Source: an uncultured Alphaproteobacteria bacterium
GTDB lineage: Bacteria > Pseudomonadota > Alphaproteobacteria > RF32 > CAG-239
Direction of reading: 5' to 3'
DNA length: 64,000 nucleotides
NCBI GenBank assembly: GCA_944390885.1
Contig: CALXRP010000008.1
Coordinates: 5,019-69,018 of the forward strand
The position numbers and the translations under genes were made by a program. Below, one piece after another: positions 3,946-50,470 of the stretch (positions within the stretch are counted from its first letter, which is position 1; each line of letters opens with the position of its first letter). Under the pieces are notes generated by a model that worked only from the letters and a program-made list of their open reading frames with translations, had not been told where the DNA came from and ran no database searches.

Positions 3946-4346
3946 AGACCCGGGCAATCGGATAGCTGCGCCGCGGAATGTAAGATCCGCCGGTGAGGAA
4001 AGTCCGGGCTTCACGGAGGCAGGGCACCAGATAACGTCTGGCTGGAGAAATCCAAGGGAAAGTGCCACAGAAAATTACCGCCCTCTATACGGGGGTAAGG
4101 TTGAAAAGGCGAGGTAAGAGCTCACCGCGGTTTTGGTAACAAAACCGGCCAGGAAAACCCTGCTCGATGTAAGACCAAGTTAGGACGGTTTTCTTTATGA
4201 AAACCAGCATGAAGCGCCTCCGCTTCTTCCAGAGGTAGGTCGCGATGAGCCGGACAGTGATGTTCGGCCGAGATGAATAGCTATCGTCATGATATTTCGG
4301 TAGCAGGAATATTAATGATACAGAACCCGGCTTACAGATTGCCCTA
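3946..4346 (+). ncRNA. rnpB: RNase P RNA (bacterial type A M1 RNA).
   Basis: Conserved RNase P motifs are present: GGAAAGTCCGGGCT, AGGGCA, the GGTAA.AGCTCACC region and ACAGAACCCGGCTTA near the 3' end. A P1 pairing (gggcaatc ... gattgccc) brackets the molecule. A sigma70-like promoter (TTGCAA-16-TATTGT) lies ~7 nt upstream and a T-tract follows. Confidence 0.85.
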
Positions 4347-4439
4347 TTTTCTTGTTTGACTTCTTGATATTTGATTTGCAAATTCCGACTCTTTAGTGTA
4401 AAACTAAAAACATTAAAAATAAGTGGGAAAATAAAACAA

Positions 4440-7908: not shown

Positions 7909-8004
7909 TTGACATTGTTTTTGTGGTGTGCTATTATTTTATATGAAAACACTCTCATGAGTATTTTCTCCGGCCTCGTTTTTCATCGGCTTAGAGGCCG
8001 GAGA
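7909..8004 (+). promoter_or_regulatory. Near-consensus sigma70 promoter followed by a stable hairpin. This may be a small-RNA candidate.
   Basis: The promoter is TTGACA (7909-7914), a 17 nt spacer and TATTAT (7932-7937). Inverted repeats tctccggcctc / gaggccggaga span 7967-8004. No convincing ORF follows before the repeat array. Confidence 0.3.
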
Positions 8005-8400
8005 TTCCCTACACGGCAGGAGGCCGGATCAGTTATCAATACTGAAACGCAGAGACCGCAATGCTGTGACGGGATTTGTGAATGGTAAGGTGCTTTGAAG
8101 TATTTGTCATTCTCGGCACATTATTTTTCTGTCATTCTCGGGCTTGACCCGAGAATCCAGATAAATAAATGGCCTTATTATTGACTTGGATTGCCGGGTG
8201 TAAATTCCCGCAAGCGGGCCCCTTTCGTCCCGTAGGGTTCGAACTTCGTACAAATCTAAGCTAAAGCTAAGGATTTGCACTTGTTCTCACCAACTATCGA
8301 CTTCAAGTCCGGCAATGACTAGAAAAAATAAAGTGCCCGGCAATGACAAAGAAAAAAGGACGACAATACAGAAAAGAATTTTTATTAACCATTCTGAGCA
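7960..8400. repeat. Mosaic array of short palindromic intergenic repeats, array 1. Units follow a GTCATTCTCGGG-loop-CCCGAGAATCC pattern, and GCCCGGCAATGAC half-units are also present.
   Basis: The palindrome gtcattctcgggcttgacccgagaatcc lies at 8131-8158 and a half copy at 8106-8119. gtccggcaatgac and gcccggcaatgac units lie at 8300-8345. The same units recur at 41.6-41.9 kb and 50.1-50.5 kb. Confidence 0.8.
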
Positions 8401-8516
8401 GCATGCTGCTCAAGAAAAAGAAAAGAGCAACGCGTAAGCTTTGGCACGATGATGACAATCGATCGGGGTTTTGTTGCCTCACCCGCTGAAACGTTTGCTT
8501 AGGAAGGAGACCGAAA

Positions 8517-9923
8517 ATGAATAACACTATGCTACACATGAAACTTAACTCTGCGGTGTCAACCTTTGCCGTTGCCGCTGCTTTCGCCGTCTTCCTCCCG
8601 CCTTCCAATGCTTCGGCAGGTGTTTGCTTTCTGCCCGACTGTCAGGATGATGAGGTTGTTCAGGGCGATATTAATATGGACATTAACGAAGATTCCAGAT
8701 TTTGTGAGGAGAAAGGCTATACCTATTATTCTTCCGGCGAATGTCCGCAATATCAGGCTAAAGTCGGTACTTGTTCCCGTGATGATCATTACCTGAAATG
8801 TGATGCCGTTACCTGGTGTAAGAACAACGGCTATAATACGCAAACCTGTTCTCTGCCGTCCTTCGTAGACGGACAATGTCCGAACGGCAAACCTTATTAC
8901 AAACAATGTAAAGAAGACCGGCCGAGAGCCTGCCGCGAACAAGGCTATGTCAATTCTTGTTCTTCCGGACGGCTTTATGCTACCTCAAACCGCTGTCCCT
9001 GGGATAATTCTTACGGTAAATGCTGCACCGCTTCTCCGTCGACAGGTTGTCCGACCGATTATAAGGTTACCTGTGATTCTTCCCGTGGATCATCCGGAAC
9101 GGATACCTGCGGATATACCTGTTATCGCTGCTGTGATGATACCTGCCCGTCCGGAACTTCTAAAAATTACACCGGATCATACTCAACAACAACCGAATGC
9201 GGTACCAGATGTAACAGATGTAAATCTTGTCCGTCCGGTTCCAGTACTTCTTATACCGGATCTTATGCCGGAACGACCGAATGTAACGGCGGACAAAGCT
9301 GTTATAAATGTAATGATACCTGTCGAACGGGAGAAAAATCGGTTTCTTGTTCCTCGACTTATAAAAAGGTAAAGGTATCAACAACCGAATGCGGAACAGG
9401 ATGTTATGAGTGTCAATATAATACAGATTGTAATGTTACATCAAAATCATGCACCTATGGTTGTGCCTATACTAACTCCTGCGGTAAATGTATATCCTGT
9501 AAGTCTCATAGCCATAGCTATTCCTGCCCCTCCGGCTATCAGTCATCTTCCTGCGGATCAGGTTATACAACATCGGGTACAGCATATAAAACATGTTCTT
9601 GTGGGGCAACTTCTGGGACTTGTTATAAGTGTACCAAAAATTCAAGTGGTGGTTCCGGCGGAGGATCTTGCTGGATTGAGCACTCTTACCCATTTTCATC
9701 TTGTGCATCATCCAAGCGGGCTTATAACTCCGTTGATAGCAGATTGGCATGTCATTCGCACTCCGGCGGATGGGGATTTGACTTCCAATATTATTGTGAA
9801 GATCCCAATAATTATCTTTGGGAAACCCGTTGGGATTCCACTTGGACATGCTATTTTGCAACAAAATCGGAATGTGAAGCTAATTATAATCATTTGGCTA
9901 GTGGATATATTACAAACTCATAA
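8517..9923 (+). CDS. Secreted cysteine-rich modular protein, paralog A (468 aa). It is a novel family with no confident functional assignment.
   Basis: A signal peptide is present (MKLNSAVSTFAVAAAFAVFLPPSNASA). About 80 Cys occur in repeated modules (…SGTSKNYTGSYSTTTECGTRCNRCKSC…). An RBS (ggaaggagacc) lies upstream and a strong terminator downstream. The protein is near-identical to the 40345-41613 product over its N-terminal ~200 aa. Confidence 0.7.
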   Translation: MNNTMLHMKLNSAVSTFAVAAAFAVFLPPSNASAGVCFLPDCQDDEVVQGDINMDINEDSRFCEEKGYTYYSSGECPQYQAKVGTCSRDDHYLKCDAVTWCKNNGYNTQTCSLPSFVDGQCPNGKPYYKQCKEDRPRACREQGYVNSCSSGRLYATSNRCPWDNSYGKCCTASPSTGCPTDYKVTCDSSRGSSGTDTCGYTCYRCCDDTCPSGTSKNYTGSYSTTTECGTRCNRCKSCPSGSSTSYTGSYAGTTECNGGQSCYKCNDTCRTGEKSVSCSSTYKKVKVSTTECGTGCYECQYNTDCNVTSKSCTYGCAYTNSCGKCISCKSHSHSYSCPSGYQSSSCGSGYTTSGTAYKTCSCGATSGTCYKCTKNSSGGSGGGSCWIEHSYPFSSCASSKRAYNSVDSRLACHSHSGGWGFDFQYYCEDPNNYLWETRWDSTWTCYFATKSECEANYNHLASGYITNS

Positions 9924-9933
9924 CAAATATAAA

Positions 9934-9962
9934 AAAGGCTCCCGAAAAGGAGCCTTTTTTAT
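9934..9962 (+). terminator. Rho-independent terminator after Cys-rich paralog A.
   Basis: The hairpin aaaaaaggctcccgaaaaggagcctttttt is followed by a T-run. Confidence 0.7.
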
Positions 9963-10317
9963 ATGCTTTTTTTATTCGTCAAATAAAATCCCGCCGGGCA
10001 AAAGGAATTTGTTTCATGTTTTGATAATATCTTTTGTTCTATTTTTATAATTAATTTTATTAATTAATATTGCGTATTAAAATCTGATTTCTCGGCCGGT
10101 TAAACTTATCCCCATTTTTTTGCACATAAAAAATTAAAAATTTTCATTCCTTTTCTATATATAGCCATCTTATCTAGAACACATACTATATATAGTATAC
10201 GCCATAAATTTTTCATAAAATACCATAATTTCCCATTGCATACCATATTTTCCCATGTTATATAATTACTTGTTAACGGTAACAAGGGGTATGGCATTGA
10301 GAAAAACTTTTCTCTTT

Positions 10318-21832: not shown

Positions 21833-21908
<76 letters not shown>

Positions 21909-38134: not shown

Positions 38135-40294
38135 ATGAATTTTAAAAAGTCCTTAAGTATTTTCTTTGCCGCAGGAATACTGGGATCTTGCGCTTGGGAA
38201 AGCCCCGAGCTGATTCCCTGCGCCTGCAACAATCTGGCAGAAAGCGACCTTGGTTGGTTTACCTGCCTTTGCGGGTCTGACGGCCAGGTAAAAGAAAAGA
38301 GAAAAGTTGCCAAAAAGCAGGAAGTCCGCAGACAGGAACCCCGCAAACAGGTTAAACAAGTCAAAAAGACGGTAGTTCGCAAACAAGAACAAGTTTATCG
38401 TCCCGAGAGAGTTGTTGTTGAACGCACCCGCCGGGTTGCTCCTGCACCGCTGCCGTATTGCGATGAAGAGCCCGTTGTTCGCAAAAAATATACCCAAAGG
38501 ACTTTTGTTGCCGCAGATGTTGAAGAACCCCAATTGACTCGGGATGATCTGGCCTCCTTAAAACTCGAGTATGTTGATTTTCGTCTTGAAAACGGCGGCA
38601 GACAATATGATACCAAATTGGGCGATTATCGTTTCCGCATTTTCGGCTGCCGCAGAGAAAGCCGGAACGTGTTCCTGAATCAGGGGCGCGCCATGGAAAA
38701 AGATATGCGCTTCTTTGATATCTTTTTTGAAAATATGAATGAACTGTATCCGGTTGTTGTCGATCGTAACAGCCCGTTGTACGAGGTTTCTGACCGTATC
38801 CGCGTGCCGGAATATCTGTTGACGGCCGAAATTGTCGACTATCATATGAATATTTGTGATGAATTTGACTGGAACAATACTCAAAAGAAAAATACCCGCA
38901 CCGGAAGTTCGGAAATCACTATCGTATGGCGGTTAATGGATTTGTGCAAAACCCATGTATATTGGAAAGGAATGACCAACGGTTATGCCGAGGTAATGAG
39001 CGGTGAGCCGAATGGTGAAACCCTGTTGGTAGAGCGCGCATTCAGCGATGCCTTAAAACAGCTGCCGTATGTTTCCGGATTTGAGGAACAGATGACCAAA
39101 CGCGTCAGCCCCGAAGACCTGATGGCTCAACAGCGCTGCTGGGATACTTTGGAACAACGTGCCGAAACTTTCCAATGCGAATACAAAAAAGAAATCAGCC
39201 GTGCTGCAGACGAGCCGGTATATTATGAAAGCCCCTGCATTGAAGAAAGAAGCAGCTCCCGTTCAACAAATTATGTAATTGAGGATATCATTGAAGAAGA
39301 CGGCGGTGCTTTTGCCGAAGGGCGTTCTTTCCGTGAAGAAATCAAAGAGCGCGGCGGATCAGATTCTGACGGCAGCGTTTTCCGCAGCCAGATTATTGAA
39401 GACGGCGGTTCGTTTTCTTCCGGTGAAAGTTTCAAACCGGTCAAACCGAGAGAAAACCATGCTTTTGTTGAAGATTACTGGGTAGACGTTCCTCTTGACA
39501 AAGAAGTCAGTCAGGAAGTCATTGAAAATCGTGAGATTGTCGAAGATGCATTGATGAAAGATAAAAACAGCCTCTGCATTATGGCTCAGCGTCCATATAA
39601 TAAATTGACGCCGGAAACACTGTATCGCGTCCGTGCTTCAATTGTTGAGGTTAGCAATCCTTCCGGCAAAAAAGGTTCCGGACTTCTGATCTCCGACCAG
39701 TTCATCTTAACGTCGGCAGATCTGCTAAACAAAAATAACAACCGTTTTGACATCAAGACCATTAACGGCAAAGAAATGGCAGCATCTGCTTTTCGTGTAA
39801 ACCCAAACAAAAATGTAGCTTTGCTGTTGTTGGACAACAAAACGCAGTATAAACCGCTGCCGTTGACTTTGGATTTGCCGGAAGTTAACAAAGATGTATT
39901 AATGACCTTGGGCATGAAAGACCTGGCAGAAAGCGAAGGCTATCTGGATAGCAACGCCCGTGTTATCGGCTATCGTTACTCTCCGGAAAGAGGTGCCGAG
40001 ATTATGGTCAGCACCCGCGTTCAAAACCAAACCTTGGGCGGTGCTCTGCTGGATAAAAATGCCAACATCGTTGGTATGGCACATGCCGGCAAGAGAATGT
40101 CCGACGGACCGGATTTGTTTATCCCGATTGAAACGGCGATGAAGGCTTTGGATCTGACATTCTGTAACAAGCCGTTCACCAACGAAGCGCCTTGGGAAGA
40201 AGAAGTCAAACCGGCAACTCCGGTAGCAACAGCCATCGATACGGATAAGACGGATAAAGCCCCTGTCCCGATGGATGCCAAAGAGGCGAAGTAA
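38135..40294 (+). CDS. Large lipoprotein with a basic repeat region, an acidic repeat region, and a C-terminal trypsin-like (S1/DegP-like) domain whose catalytic triad appears substituted.
   Basis: A lipobox (ILGSC) is present. The basic region is K/R/Q-rich (KEKRKVAKKQEVRRQEPRKQVKQVKK…). The acidic region carries repeats of IIE(E)DGG.F..G.SF. The C-terminal region (…GSGLLISDQFILTSADLL…NVALLLLDN…QTLGGALLDKNANIVGMAHAG) aligns to the trypsin-fold motifs TAAHC, D and GDSGG. In this alignment His appears replaced by Asp and Ser by Leu. Confidence 0.5.
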   Translation: MNFKKSLSIFFAAGILGSCAWESPELIPCACNNLAESDLGWFTCLCGSDGQVKEKRKVAKKQEVRRQEPRKQVKQVKKTVVRKQEQVYRPERVVVERTRRVAPAPLPYCDEEPVVRKKYTQRTFVAADVEEPQLTRDDLASLKLEYVDFRLENGGRQYDTKLGDYRFRIFGCRRESRNVFLNQGRAMEKDMRFFDIFFENMNELYPVVVDRNSPLYEVSDRIRVPEYLLTAEIVDYHMNICDEFDWNNTQKKNTRTGSSEITIVWRLMDLCKTHVYWKGMTNGYAEVMSGEPNGETLLVERAFSDALKQLPYVSGFEEQMTKRVSPEDLMAQQRCWDTLEQRAETFQCEYKKEISRAADEPVYYESPCIEERSSSRSTNYVIEDIIEEDGGAFAEGRSFREEIKERGGSDSDGSVFRSQIIEDGGSFSSGESFKPVKPRENHAFVEDYWVDVPLDKEVSQEVIENREIVEDALMKDKNSLCIMAQRPYNKLTPETLYRVRASIVEVSNPSGKKGSGLLISDQFILTSADLLNKNNNRFDIKTINGKEMAASAFRVNPNKNVALLLLDNKTQYKPLPLTLDLPEVNKDVLMTLGMKDLAESEGYLDSNARVIGYRYSPERGAEIMVSTRVQNQTLGGALLDKNANIVGMAHAGKRMSDGPDLFIPIETAMKALDLTFCNKPFTNEAPWEEEVKPATPVATAIDTDKTDKAPVPMDAKEAK

Positions 40295-40299
40295 TTATA

Positions 40300-40340
40300 A
40301 AATAAAAACCCCGGAAGCGTAAAACTTCCGGGTTTTTCTT
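40300..40340. terminator. Bidirectional rho-independent terminator between convergent genes.
   Basis: The hairpin aaaccccggaagcgtaaaacttccgggttttt lies between the two convergent ORFs. Confidence 0.65.
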
Positions 40341-40344
40341 TTCC

Positions 40345-41613
40345 TTATTTGCACAGGTCTGCAGCAACAGCTTCGGCTTCAGCTTTTCCTGAATCACAAG
40401 AGTCATTCTTATAATTGGCCCAACATTCTTCCGGAGTGGAATAGCCGTTAACTCGGGTATGATAATATTTAACAAATTGTCCATTTTTATAAAGACTATG
40501 AGAACAAGTTGCAGCCACTGTCTGTGGAAATTTTAGATACCAGTGATAAGTTTCGTTCCTGTTATCTTGACAATTGGAGGCATAGCTTTGATGTGTTACA
40601 GAGTAGGTACATGGAGGTTCAGCCGGCTTAGATTTACAAGAAGTACATTTACCACAGGAGTTGGTAGAAGCACAACCATAATCGCAGGATTTTGAAGACA
40701 CAGAACAATCGGAATTATACTCGCAAGAATAGCAAGCCGTCCCGCATTCGGTTGTCGATACGCGGGTTTTTACATAATTGGAAGAGCAAGATACGGATTT
40801 CTGACCTGAGCGGCAGGTATCGGAACAAGCATAGCAGCTTCCGCACTCTGAAGATCCAACATAAGATCCGGTATAAGACCGGCTGCCGGAAGTACAGTCT
40901 TTACATCTGTTACATCTGGTACCGCATTCGGTAGTAGAAGCATAAGATCCGTGATAGTTTTTAGAAGTACCGGACGGACAGGTGTCATCACAGCAGCGGT
41001 AACAAGTATATCCGCAGGTATCTACACCGGACGAACCGCGGGACGGATCACAGGTGACTTTGTAACTGGACGGACAACCTGTCGACGGCGAAGCAGTACA
41101 ACATTTACCATAAGAATTATCCCACGGACAACGGTTTGTCGATTTATACAACCGTCCCGGAGAACAGGAGTTGACATATCCTTGTTCGCGGCAGGCTCTC
41201 GGCCGGTCTTCTTTACAACCCTTGTAATAAGGTTTGCCGTTCGGACATTGGTCGTTAACAAAGGACGGCAGAGAACAGGTCTGCGTATTATAGCCGTTAT
41301 TCTTACACCAGGTAACGGCATCACATTTCAGGTAATGATCATCACGGGAACAAGTACCGACTTTAGCCTGATATTGCGGACATTCGCCGGAAGAATAATA
41401 GGTATAGCCTTTCTCCTCGCAATACTCGGTATCGGAGTTGATGTTCATATTAATATCGCCCTGAACAATCTCATCATCCTGACAGTCCGGCAGAAAACAA
41501 ATGCCAGCTGAAGCATTGGAAGGCGGGAGAAAGACCGCAAAAGCAGCGGCAACAGCAAGAACCGACACCGCAGAGTTAAGTTTCATGTGTAGCATAGTGT
41601 TATAATTTTTCAT
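40345..41613 (-). CDS. Secreted cysteine-rich modular protein, paralog B (≈415-422 aa).
   Basis: The signal peptide and first ~200 aa match paralog A at >90% DNA identity. The same Cys-rich modules are present, with a divergent central and C-terminal part. Confidence 0.7.
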   Translation of the reverse strand: MKNYNTMLHMKLNSAVSVLAVAAAFAVFLPPSNASAGICFLPDCQDDEIVQGDINMNINSDTEYCEEKGYTYYSSGECPQYQAKVGTCSRDDHYLKCDAVTWCKNNGYNTQTCSLPSFVNDQCPNGKPYYKGCKEDRPRACREQGYVNSCSPGRLYKSTNRCPWDNSYGKCCTASPSTGCPSSYKVTCDPSRGSSGVDTCGYTCYRCCDDTCPSGTSKNYHGSYASTTECGTRCNRCKDCTSGSRSYTGSYVGSSECGSCYACSDTCRSGQKSVSCSSNYVKTRVSTTECGTACYSCEYNSDCSVSSKSCDYGCASTNSCGKCTSCKSKPAEPPCTYSVTHQSYASNCQDNRNETYHWYLKFPQTVAATCSHSLYKNGQFVKYYHTRVNGYSTPEECWANYKNDSCDSGKAEAEAVAADLCK

Positions 41614-41639
41614 CGGCTTCCTCCCTTATAAAAATTCTT

Positions 41640-41900
41640 TTCTTCTTTTGTCGTCCTTTTTTTTCTTTGTCATTGCCGGGCGCTTTATTTTTTTAGTCAT
41701 TGCCGGGCTCTTTTTTTCTTTCGTCATCCCCGGGCTTCGACCCGGGGATCCATATTTCAAAGCACCTTGTCATTCACAAACCCCGTCATAGCATCGCGAT
41801 CTCTTAGGCACAGTGCCAACAACCGATCGCTCAGGCCGGTGCCTGTGGATTCTCGGGTCAAGCCCGAGAATGACAAATTGAGTAACAAACCTCATAAGAA
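41640..41900. repeat. Mosaic palindromic repeat array 2. It lies upstream of paralog B and is partly homologous to array 1 in inverted orientation.
   Basis: The array contains gtcattgccgggc+T-tract units (x2) and gtcatccccgggcttcgacccggggatcc (41726-41756). It also contains ggattctcgggtcaagcccgagaatgac (41846-41874) and a spacer ctcaggccggtgcctgtgg that is shared with array 3. Confidence 0.8.
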
Positions 41901-42038
41901 CGACAATAAAGATACTATAACACAAGAAAACACAAAAGTCAATATATTATGAAAAATAGGACGGGGATTTTGGCTAAAGAAAACAAAAAATACCGGCAAA
42001 TAAAAGTTGCCGGTATTCGTTAAAGTAAAAAAGAATTT

Positions 42039-50109: not shown

Positions 50110-50470
50110 TGCCGTACCTGTCATCCCCGGGCTTTTTTTCTAGTCATCCCCGGGCCGTGTTTTTTTATTGTCATTGCCGGGCTATGTTTTTTTATCGTCA
50201 TCCCCGGGCACCGACCCGGGGATCCAGATCAAACAAATTTCCTCTTAGTCATTGCCGGACTTGATCCGGCAATCCATTCTTCAAAGCACAATCTTAACCG
50301 TAGAAAACAATGGAGCAACGCGATCCTCAGGGCACAATTCTGACAACTGACCGCTCAGGCCGTTGCCTGTGGATTCTCGGGTCAAGCCCGAGAATGACAA
50401 AAACTTCAAAGCACAAAGCCATTCATAACCCCCGCCGGGTGCGCAGCCGACGTTCGGCCGCCTGCCGTGC
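50110..50470. repeat. Mosaic palindromic repeat array 3.
   Basis: The array contains gtcatccccgggc(T)n, gtcattgccgggc(T)n and catccccgggcaccgacccggggatcc. It also contains gtcattgccggacttgatccggcaatcc, ctcaggccgttgcctgtgg and ggattctcgggtcaagcccgagaatgac. Confidence 0.8.

Follow-up and report, generated by a model that had tools for sequence, protein, structure and literature searches.

A mosaic, lineage-restricted family of cysteine-rich, putatively exported proteins in uncultured gut Alphaproteobacteria

Two genes in a 64-kb stretch of DNA from an uncultured alphaproteobacterium (contig CALXRP010000008.1; the whole stretch is referred to as the window) are, judging by sequence searches, members of a large, undescribed and lineage-restricted multigene family of uncultured gut Alphaproteobacteria. 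Gene A, at positions 8517-9923 of the forward strand, encodes a protein of 468 amino acids; gene B, at 40345-41613 of the reverse strand, encodes one of 422. Both open reading frames (ORFs) are present and intact on the strands and at the coordinates given in a preliminary description of the window. The account we favour, and hold to be somewhat probable, is that of a recombining family of exported, disulfide-stapled, rod-like binding (adhesin-like) proteins in which the base is conserved and the tip can be exchanged. The surface or extracellular location, the binding function and the role of the base in this account are what we infer from sequence features.

Within the window the family is represented by A and B only, as determined by tblastn. 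Residues 3-330 of A align with residues 5-328 of B at 84% identity (BLASTP), and the downstream remainder of the two proteins is unalignable. The preliminary description presented the genes as two diverging paralogs; the paralogy holds over the first ~330 residues, and the count is an understatement, as the family has hundreds of members. The initial parts of the genes, described there as almost identical at the nucleotide level, are less similar than that: identity is 87% over the first 600 nucleotides (nt) and falls to 67% by nt 751-990, the overall figure being 81-87%, with 92% over nt 106-300. A single run of 119 nt (window positions 8706-8824, nt 190-308 of the coding sequence of A) is perfectly identical, against 67-92% elsewhere, and suggests a recent gene-conversion tract. 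Synonymous divergence (dS) between A and B is 0.35 in the N-terminal domain and climbs to 1.32 in the stalk that follows it; this rise, taken together with the identical run, points to gene conversion keeping the 5' parts of the genes alike. The ratio of non-synonymous to synonymous divergence (dN/dS) is 0.12-0.19 over residues 1-330 and 0.12 in the stalk; because of these low ratios, both genes are seen to be under purifying selection.

The exact sequence of protein A has no database record under exact look-up. A sequence search recovered 490 clusters (90% identity) of relatives at E<=1e-3, all of them unnamed or 'hypothetical protein', the labelled ones originating from metagenome-assembled genomes (MAGs) of 'Alphaproteobacteria bacterium'. 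Among genomes of 185,579 species, one genome per species, 131 loci were confirmed by tblastn, and the best 80 of the 131 all fall in six MAGs of uncultured gut Alphaproteobacteria, with 7-21 loci per MAG (sources: human, Hadza human, mouse, water-deer rectum and two others). When 1.84 billion representatives were searched exhaustively with a profile, only 181 proteins were found at E<=1e-3. Combined with the many loci per MAG, this indicates that the family is taxonomically narrow and greatly expanded within its lineage. Family genes are scattered through the MAGs as singletons with unrelated housekeeping genes on either side, often in syntenic locations; the flanks of ~45 complete loci in the six MAGs contain no conserved neighbour and no partner gene of the immunity, transporter or chaperone kind. 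Tandem pairs occur occasionally in human and mouse gut MAGs (loci L041, at 4001 and 5395, and L045, at 4001 and 5576). The origin of the family in mobile elements was rejected, as tblastn found no match in phage and plasmid collections. A literature search on gut RF32-type Alphaproteobacteria and cysteine-rich proteins found nothing relevant.

Both proteins begin with the N-terminal signal peptide that had been ascribed to them. The signal of A, read from its sequence, is of the typical Sec kind, with a positively charged n-region, a hydrophobic h-region and small residues at positions -3 and -1, and the family-wide pattern A-x-[A/G/S/C] at these positions fits cleavage by signal peptidase I (SPase I). 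The predicted mature protein starts with the motif G-[VI]-C-F-L-P-D-C, of which G35, C37, F38, L39, P40, D41 and C42 are invariant in 92 aligned sequences. The motif is retained in distant relatives, and L39, P40 and D41 are still invariant in a diverse alignment of 58 sequences. In several distant relatives (P0131, P0134, P0147, P0181, P0190, P0222 and others) an extra conserved stretch, (H-T-H-T)-x-T-P-x-E-L-K-P-x-S...K-x-A-[AS]-V-C-F-L-G-x-G-D-C-G, stands between the signal peptide and the motif, in some cases with the first cysteine replaced by T, H, Y or W; it may represent a propeptide or a sorting element.

The cysteine content of the two proteins, put at 15-20% in the preliminary description, amounts to 52 of 468 residues (11.1%) in A and 46 of 422 (10.9%) in B, and only the central stalk of A (residues 178-372) attains ~16%, as counted from the listed cysteine positions. 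Across the family the content is 8-15%; A and B contain eight CxxC motifs each. In 148 of 154 complete family proteins the number of cysteines is even after removal of the signal peptide. Even parity is obtained only with a cut before G35, and variants with an additional cysteine at -1 (A-Y-C) become even only after cleavage. From this parity every cysteine is expected to take part in an intramolecular disulfide, and all cysteines are probably so paired. Free thiols available for cross-linking are disfavoured by the same parity, as is a metal-cluster or zinc-ribbon reading of the CxxC modules, and the 46 cysteines of B are not a multiple of four. Lipidation of C37 was considered and rejected: the lipobox [LVI][ASTVI][GAS]C is not matched, C37 being preceded by A/G/S/C, G/A and V/I, so that V or I occupies -1; distant relatives have T, H, Y or W in place of this cysteine; and the parity that is even in 148 of 154 proteins includes C37. 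An autotransporter of type V is likewise rejected, since no C-terminal beta-barrel is present, the last 85-95 residues being cysteine-rich cassettes with no match to Pfam autotransporter models.

Following the motif, the proteins fall into a base, a stalk and a tip (Table 1). The stalk module S-G-x-S-x-x-Y-T-G-S-Y-x-x-T-T-E-C-G-x-x-C-x-x-C, proposed in the preliminary description, is real: its two clear tandem copies in A, m1 and m2, match each other at z = 11.3 against shuffled sequences, and m3 and m5 are degenerate relatives (z ~4 against shuffles). A weaker second kind of module, C-x3-G-Y...C...C...C, occurs in three copies in the N-terminal part (z 2.3-4.2). The cysteines of the base are invariant or nearly so, as are G67, W100, Y106 and Y128. 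Protein A was modelled twice with AlphaFold2, on the 92-sequence alignment and on the diverse 58-sequence alignment that includes distant relatives. The first model is confident only at residues 135-375, with a predicted local distance difference test (pLDDT) score of ~82-94 up to residue ~370. The second scores 92-98 over residues ~57-210 and mostly 71-94 up to ~330-335; beyond that the score is ~55-68 over ~331-380, below 50 from residue 376, and ~30 in the tip. The base is modelled as successive helices (H) and strands (E), H58-65/E81-85/E92-96, H97-103/E115-120/E128-133, then H135-141 and the elements that follow, and the stalk as a chain of beta-hairpins, one for every cysteine-rich module. 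Base and disulfide-stapled hairpin stalk thus appear as two confidently modelled domains, for which sequence and profile searches detect no relative in the PDB.

The family genes are mosaics. Residues ~1-212 are common to all members, and at least three types of middle region follow. Type I, found in A and B, is made of the stalk modules described above; two further types are built on ...NPGGCGGSTRNGC... and ...SDPTGCSSS.KNGCGNKTCY.... A short linker rich in Gly/Ser or in Pro joins the middle region to a C-terminal tip. The tips of 164 proteins form 45-69 sequence types, the number varying with the threshold, and the same tip type occurs on different middle types. The sole relative of tip A in the sample, the tip of P0089, is 93% identical and sits on a type II middle; the relatives of tip B are only the tips of P0090, P0072, P0119 and P0079. 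A word-indexed search of a large database with the 89-residue tip A gave no candidate, and the P0089 match shows the limited sensitivity of such a search for short cysteine-rich queries. The closest relatives of A and of B change from segment to segment. In the water-deer MAG, locus L026 corresponds in position to B and is its ortholog: the proteins of the flanking protease-like and ATPase genes are 89% and 91% identical to those of the window. The family gene at L026 ceases to resemble B near residue 290 and carries a different tip.

When hidden Markov models (HMMs) of tip A or tip B are searched iteratively, each gathers no more than its own small group, and the two tips are connected neither to each other nor to other types. 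The C-termini had been thought to have diverged by indels and substitutions; instead, the absence of HMM links indicates unrelated, distinct cassettes that are exchanged by recombination and not one drifted sequence. The possibility that the tips are a single fast-evolving homologous domain was rejected on the same searches. Of the pattern proposed originally, a conserved base joined to a diversifying exposed part, the architecture proves to be family-wide, and the diversification takes the form of cassette replacement and mosaic recombination and is not gradual. The mosaicism is observed directly, and the selective reason we propose for it would be the repertoire that it gives each genome.

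The stalk module has no counterpart among known domains, as had been surmised. Neither A nor B has a match in Pfam or NCBIfam at E<=10; this includes PF03302 (Giardia VSP), EGF, furin-like, FGFR Cys-rich and Myxococcus Cys-rich repeat models, and the isolated tips of A and B likewise match nothing in Pfam. No Pfam match was found among the 92 aligned relatives at E<=0.01, and a comparison of 38 isolated tips with Pfam gave no significant match for those of A and B. Searches of PDB sequences, with single sequences or profiles, found no match. PADLOC returned nothing, and PHROGs nothing for A and one weak, chance-level match for B (E 0.0088, a family of unknown function).

The case for a binding (adhesin-like) role draws its main positive evidence from distant members of the family. 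P0153 (1334 residues), P0154 (1843), P0155 (974) and P0167 (750) each have a signal peptide, the sequence A-I-C-F-L-P-D-C and the same base, followed by several Lcl_C domains (PF07603, formerly DUF1566) that score 54.7, 84.6, 49.0 and 43.9 bits, respectively, against a cut-off of 34.9 bits. A and B do not reach this cut-off and have no Lcl_C match even at E<=10. Three tips of close relatives give sub-threshold Lcl_C matches (14-19 bits, E 0.0024-0.05) and contain a stretch of the W-x-[IL]-P-x-x-x-E-[LA] type, which we take to be characteristic of Lcl_C. Some tips match models of defensins, myticins and scorpion toxins in a weak and composition-prone manner (E 0.004-0.05). Lcl of Legionella pneumophila is a type II-secreted, surface-associated 'lollipop' adhesin, and its C-terminal head, which contains DUF1566, adopts a fold like that of C-type lectins and binds sulphated glycosaminoglycans (PMC11162425). 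The relatives with Lcl_C therefore show that in at least part of the family the position after the base and stalk holds a lectin-like binding head. For A and B themselves such a role is suggested by the shared architecture, and the adhesin function originally listed among several options thus draws indirect support from relatives and none from domains in the two proteins.

A sequence of steps can be proposed for the life of these proteins. Judging from the sequence, they would be exported by Sec and cut by SPase I directly before G-[VI]-C-F-L-P-D-C. Oxidative folding, to which cysteine parity points indirectly, would then produce a rigid, protease-resistant rod, and the mature protein would resemble an elongated 'lollipop' of three-unit base, hairpin stalk, short linker and small tip. 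The base and the C-F-L-P-D-C motif, which contain no known sorting signal, probably hold the protein on the envelope or mediate its passage through the outer membrane, and the small variable tip on its flexible linker probably binds a ligand, as the Lcl_C relatives suggest. Gene conversion and recombination among paralogs would homogenise the 5' parts and swap stalk segments and tips, so that each genome would be equipped for the gut with a range of binding specificities and antigenic faces. Several points weigh against this account. The tips of A and B match nothing and are not modelled confidently, and binding by these two proteins is argued from their relatives; disulfide pairing is deduced from cysteine parity. 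Neither a membrane anchor nor a lipobox, a beta-barrel or a known sorting signal could be identified, and the proteins might be retained in the periplasm or released. The copy numbers come from fragmented MAGs, in which family genes often lie at contig ends.

Some of the same features would suit a programmed antigenic-variation coat like the variant-specific surface proteins (VSPs) of Giardia or the antigens of ciliates, with the cysteine-rich paralogs making up a surface layer that withstands proteases, one or a few of them expressed at a time and the 5' leaders mediating the choice. A cysteine content of 11-15% with CxxC motifs, the many paralogs per genome and the replacement of the tip at the orthologous locus L026 are in keeping with it, and so are the exchangeable leader blocks and the strikingly conserved promoter, ribosome-binding site (RBS) and start region. 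Yet a near-consensus promoter and a terminator accompany each copy that was examined, the search for structured RNA in the leaders was negative, and the Pfam searches reveal no sequence relationship to VSPs. No invertible element or inverted-repeat-flanked promoter was noticed at the loci examined, which were not subjected to a dedicated search, and the additional family matches, also seen without a dedicated search, are second full copies or contig-end fragments and not silent cassettes. We consider a coat of this kind unlikely. A broader form of the idea sees in the family a bacterial equivalent of the variant surface proteins of protozoa: a disulfide-armoured, protease-resistant coat or fibril layer held by a novel N-terminal sorting and anchoring module (the G-[VI]-C-F-L-P-D-C motif and the three-unit base), with exposed tips continually re-assorted by gene conversion among at least 20 paralogs and expression coordinated by the leaders. 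We regard it as quite doubtful. If it is true, diderm gut bacteria would possess a new system for surface display and for antigenic or ligand variation, with folds that have no solved relative.

Secreted proteins with a toxic or antimicrobial action, akin to polymorphic toxins or bacteriocins, in which the N-terminal part would function in export or in binding a receptor and the small disulfide-rich C-terminal cassette would be the toxic moiety, would also combine a conserved N-terminus with variable cassettes shuffled among paralogs, and the weak tip matches to defensin, myticin and scorpion-toxin models fit such a function. This option, raised in the preliminary description, gained no support: no toxin domain is found at significance, no immunity-type gene lies 3' of A, B or the loci of the six MAGs, where terminators follow the stops and the neighbours are housekeeping genes, the sole significant tip domain in the wider family is lectin-like, and PADLOC and PHROGs are negative save for the chance-level match of B. 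We find a toxic function quite improbable. A role as disulfide-rich structural proteins of the periplasm or envelope (a cross-linked scaffold like the chlamydial OmcA/OmcB), or as a thiol or metal buffer, with no ligand-binding tip, is very unlikely: the high cysteine content, the Sec signal without a recognisable signal for outer-membrane translocation or anchoring and the periplasm of the diderm host would accommodate it, but even parity in 148 of 154 proteins implies closed intramolecular pairs and not cross-linking thiols or metal sites, for which the cysteine number of B is also unsuited, and a scaffold hardly explains extreme tip diversity or the lectin-like tips of relatives. The notion that A and B are decaying pseudo-paralogs, or gene-caller artefacts of a repeat-rich region, is effectively refuted. 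A few database relatives are indeed frameshifted or truncated (P0081, P0084, P0103), but the ORFs of A and B are intact, dN/dS is low, the cysteines keep their positions and parity, a promoter, an RBS and a terminator belong to each gene, and hundreds of relatives are intact.

The sequence elements surrounding A and B (Table 1) mark each gene as a self-contained transcription unit. Both have a strong Shine-Dalgarno sequence, and the promoter block of the A type is conserved 5' of B and of the family genes in the six MAGs. Gene A has a recN-like gene upstream and mraZ/rsmH/ftsI downstream; B is flanked on one side by a convergent trypsin-like protease gene and a Mg-chelatase-like ATPase gene, and on the other by smpB. 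No gene resembling an immunity, chaperone or transporter partner is linked to either. The presence of LpxC, BamD and a flagellar hook protein among the products encoded in the window indicates that the host is a motile diderm.

Table 1. Positions of features of genes A and B in the window.
Feature	Position	Strand	Remarks
Gene A promoter-like site	7909..7937	+	TTGACA, 17-nt spacer, TATTAT, extended -10 TG; 11/12 consensus positions
Gene A mosaic 5' leader	7938..8516	+	~590 nt; aligned with B leader and ~50 family loci
Parts of A leader	8052-8103; 8131-8158; 8383-8500	+	block b; REP-like palindrome; block c
MITE-like insert in A leader	~8187-8347		~135-160 nt; missing from B leader
Gene A RBS	8501-8509	+	AGGAAGGAG
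Gene A signal peptide	8517..8618	+	residues 1-34, MNNTMLHMK-LNSAVSTFAVAAAFAVFL-PPSNASA; predicted SPase I cut after A-S-A
Gene A predicted mature N-terminus	8619..8642	+	residues 35-42, G-V-C-F-L-P-D-C
Gene A N-terminal domain (base)	8685..9047	+	residues 57-177; three C-x3-G-Y modules, each modelled as helix + beta-hairpin with 4 Cys
Gene A stalk	9048..9668	+	residues 178-384; six putatively disulfide-rich beta-hairpin modules m0-m5, then Gly/Ser linker
Clear tandem pair m1-m2 of A	9144-9320	+	m1 residues 210-237 (CPSGTSKNYTGSYSTTTECGTRCNRCKS), m2 residues 238-268 (CPSGSSTSYTGSYAGTTECNGGQSCYKCNDT)
Gene A tip cassette and stop	9669..9923	+	residues 385-468
Gene A terminator	9927..9964	.	bidirectional, intrinsic; 16-17-pair stem, T runs on both strands; 4 nt past stop
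Gene B promoter-like site	41914..41942	-	TTGACT, 17-nt spacer, TATAGT, extended -10 TG; 10/12 consensus positions; aligns with A promoter
Gene B 5' leader	41614..41913	-	~330 nt; block b, REP-like repeats, RBS GGGAGGAAG
Gene B signal peptide	41506..41613	-	residues 1-36, predicted cut before G-I-C-F-L-P-D-C
Gene B N-terminal domain	41077..41439	-	residues 59-179; ~93% amino acid identity to A here; best family match 98%
Gene B hairpin-module stalk	40630..41076	-	residues 180-328; aligns to A residues 178-330 with two small indels
Gene B tip cassette and stop	40345..40629	-	residues 329-422; Pro-rich linker KPAEPP, then tip
Gene B terminator	40310..40332	.	bidirectional, intrinsic; between B and convergent protease-like gene; 13 nt past stop
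REP-like motif sites	8131-8142; 8308-8347; 41669-41707; 41863-41874; 50170-50398		
RBS, ribosome-binding site; REP, repetitive extragenic palindromic; MITE, miniature inverted-repeat transposable element.

The 5' regions of the family genes are mosaic as well. Promoter and RBS/start context are near-invariant across ~50 loci, and the leader blocks exchanged between them are 'b' (~55 nt) and 'c' (~110-130 nt), or are absent. A short A-tract in the leader is of unequal length in A and B. Rfam has no match to the leaders of A and B, either at gathering thresholds or at E<=1, and RNAalifold finds no supported conserved structure in blocks b and c; on these negatives a structured regulatory RNA in the leaders is rejected for now. 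The MITE-like insert in the leader of A ends in inverted ATTGCCGG/CCGGCAAT repeats and contains a T-loop-like GGTTCGAA, and ARAGORN calls no tRNA in it. The REP-like motif GTCATT[GC][CT]CGG[GA] has 9 occurrences in the window against 0.03 expected, which lie only in the two gene leaders and in a convergent intergenic region at ~50.1-50.5 kb. Public gene calls of family members (P0035, P0053) sometimes begin within the conserved leader and acquire spurious N-terminal extensions (e.g. ...KQFLLTILSTMLLGKRKEQRESL...), an annotation artefact. The protease-like protein convergent with B (38135-40294, forward strand) has 719 residues, a lipoprotein-like N-terminus, a first ~500 residues with no Pfam match and a C-terminal trypsin-like peptidase domain (residues 514-648); its 89% identical counterpart adjoins the family gene at L026. 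Elsewhere the window contains a bacterial class A RNase P RNA (3950-4350, forward strand; 267.7 bits) and a tRNA-Thr(CGT) gene (21833-21908, reverse strand).

Uncultured Alphaproteobacteria recur in mammalian gut communities, and their interaction with their surroundings is almost wholly uncharted. With many loci in a small genome, base and stalk under purifying selection and tips that are re-assorted, the family is a strong candidate for the main interface of these bacteria with host, diet and other microbes. The invariant N-terminal motif could mark an undescribed route of sorting or anchoring, and the base and stalk might serve as a natural scaffold displaying unrelated small putative binding domains. 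Should the tips bind glycans or host proteins, the family could find use in strain tracking, in colonisation studies and as a gut-stable display scaffold.

Modular extracellular proteins that join a conserved base to a variable, recombining end are already known as a type. Apparently undescribed are the domains, the stalk of disulfide hairpins, the invariant motif at the N-terminus and the extent to which the family has expanded in this lineage. Polymorphic toxins of the CDI, Rhs and MAFB types share the conserved N-terminal part and the recombining C-terminal cassettes, whereas the present family lacks an adjacent immunity gene (the next genes are mraZ for A and the convergent protease-like gene for B), a detected toxin fold and a dedicated secretion partner, and its tips are cysteine-rich and ~60-200 residues long. 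Conceptually, the closest analogues seem to be the VSPs, the sap homologs of Campylobacter fetus and the Hcp proteins of Helicobacter. The VSPs of Giardia and the cysteine-rich surface antigens of ciliates have ~11-12% cysteine, many CxxC motifs and a large repertoire of paralogs with one conserved terminal part. The family resembles Giardia VSPs in cysteine content, CxxC motifs, paralog number, the combination of a conserved end with a variable remainder, and habitat. The conserved part is C-terminal in VSPs and N-terminal here, and the proteins of the present family are bacterial and apparently Sec-exported, have no C-terminal membrane anchor, possess a consensus promoter each and are unrelated to VSPs in sequence. 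The sap paralogs of C. fetus have a common 5' non-coding region, a conserved N-terminal part that binds the envelope, and C-termini shuffled by recombination. They thus share with the family the conserved 5' region and N-terminal part and the recombining C-terminal parts, but are cysteine-poor, type I-secreted and encoded by clustered genes that one invertible promoter serves, unlike the dispersed, putatively Sec-exported and disulfide-rich members of the present family with their own promoters. Helicobacter Hcp proteins are secreted, disulfide-bridged Sel1-like repeat proteins that form a lineage-restricted paralogous family in a gut-associated proteobacterium. The likeness lies in this lineage restriction and disulfide-bridged repeat structure; the Sel1 repeats are alpha-helical and have no match in our family, the Hcp paralogs are far fewer, and they carry no swappable tip. 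Lcl appears to be the closest functional analogue: like the proteins proposed here, it is an extracellular diderm protein of stalked 'lollipop' shape that carries a Sec signal and ends in a globular binding head (PMC11162425), and the distant members P0153, P0154, P0155 and P0167 carry its Lcl_C domain after the family base. It differs in being encoded by a single gene, against 7-21 or more genes per genome in the family, and in having a collagen triple helix for a stalk in place of the modelled disulfide-stapled beta-hairpins of A and B, which are themselves without Lcl_C; its C-terminal domain has no disulfides (PMC11162425), whereas the proteins of the family contain 8-15% cysteine.

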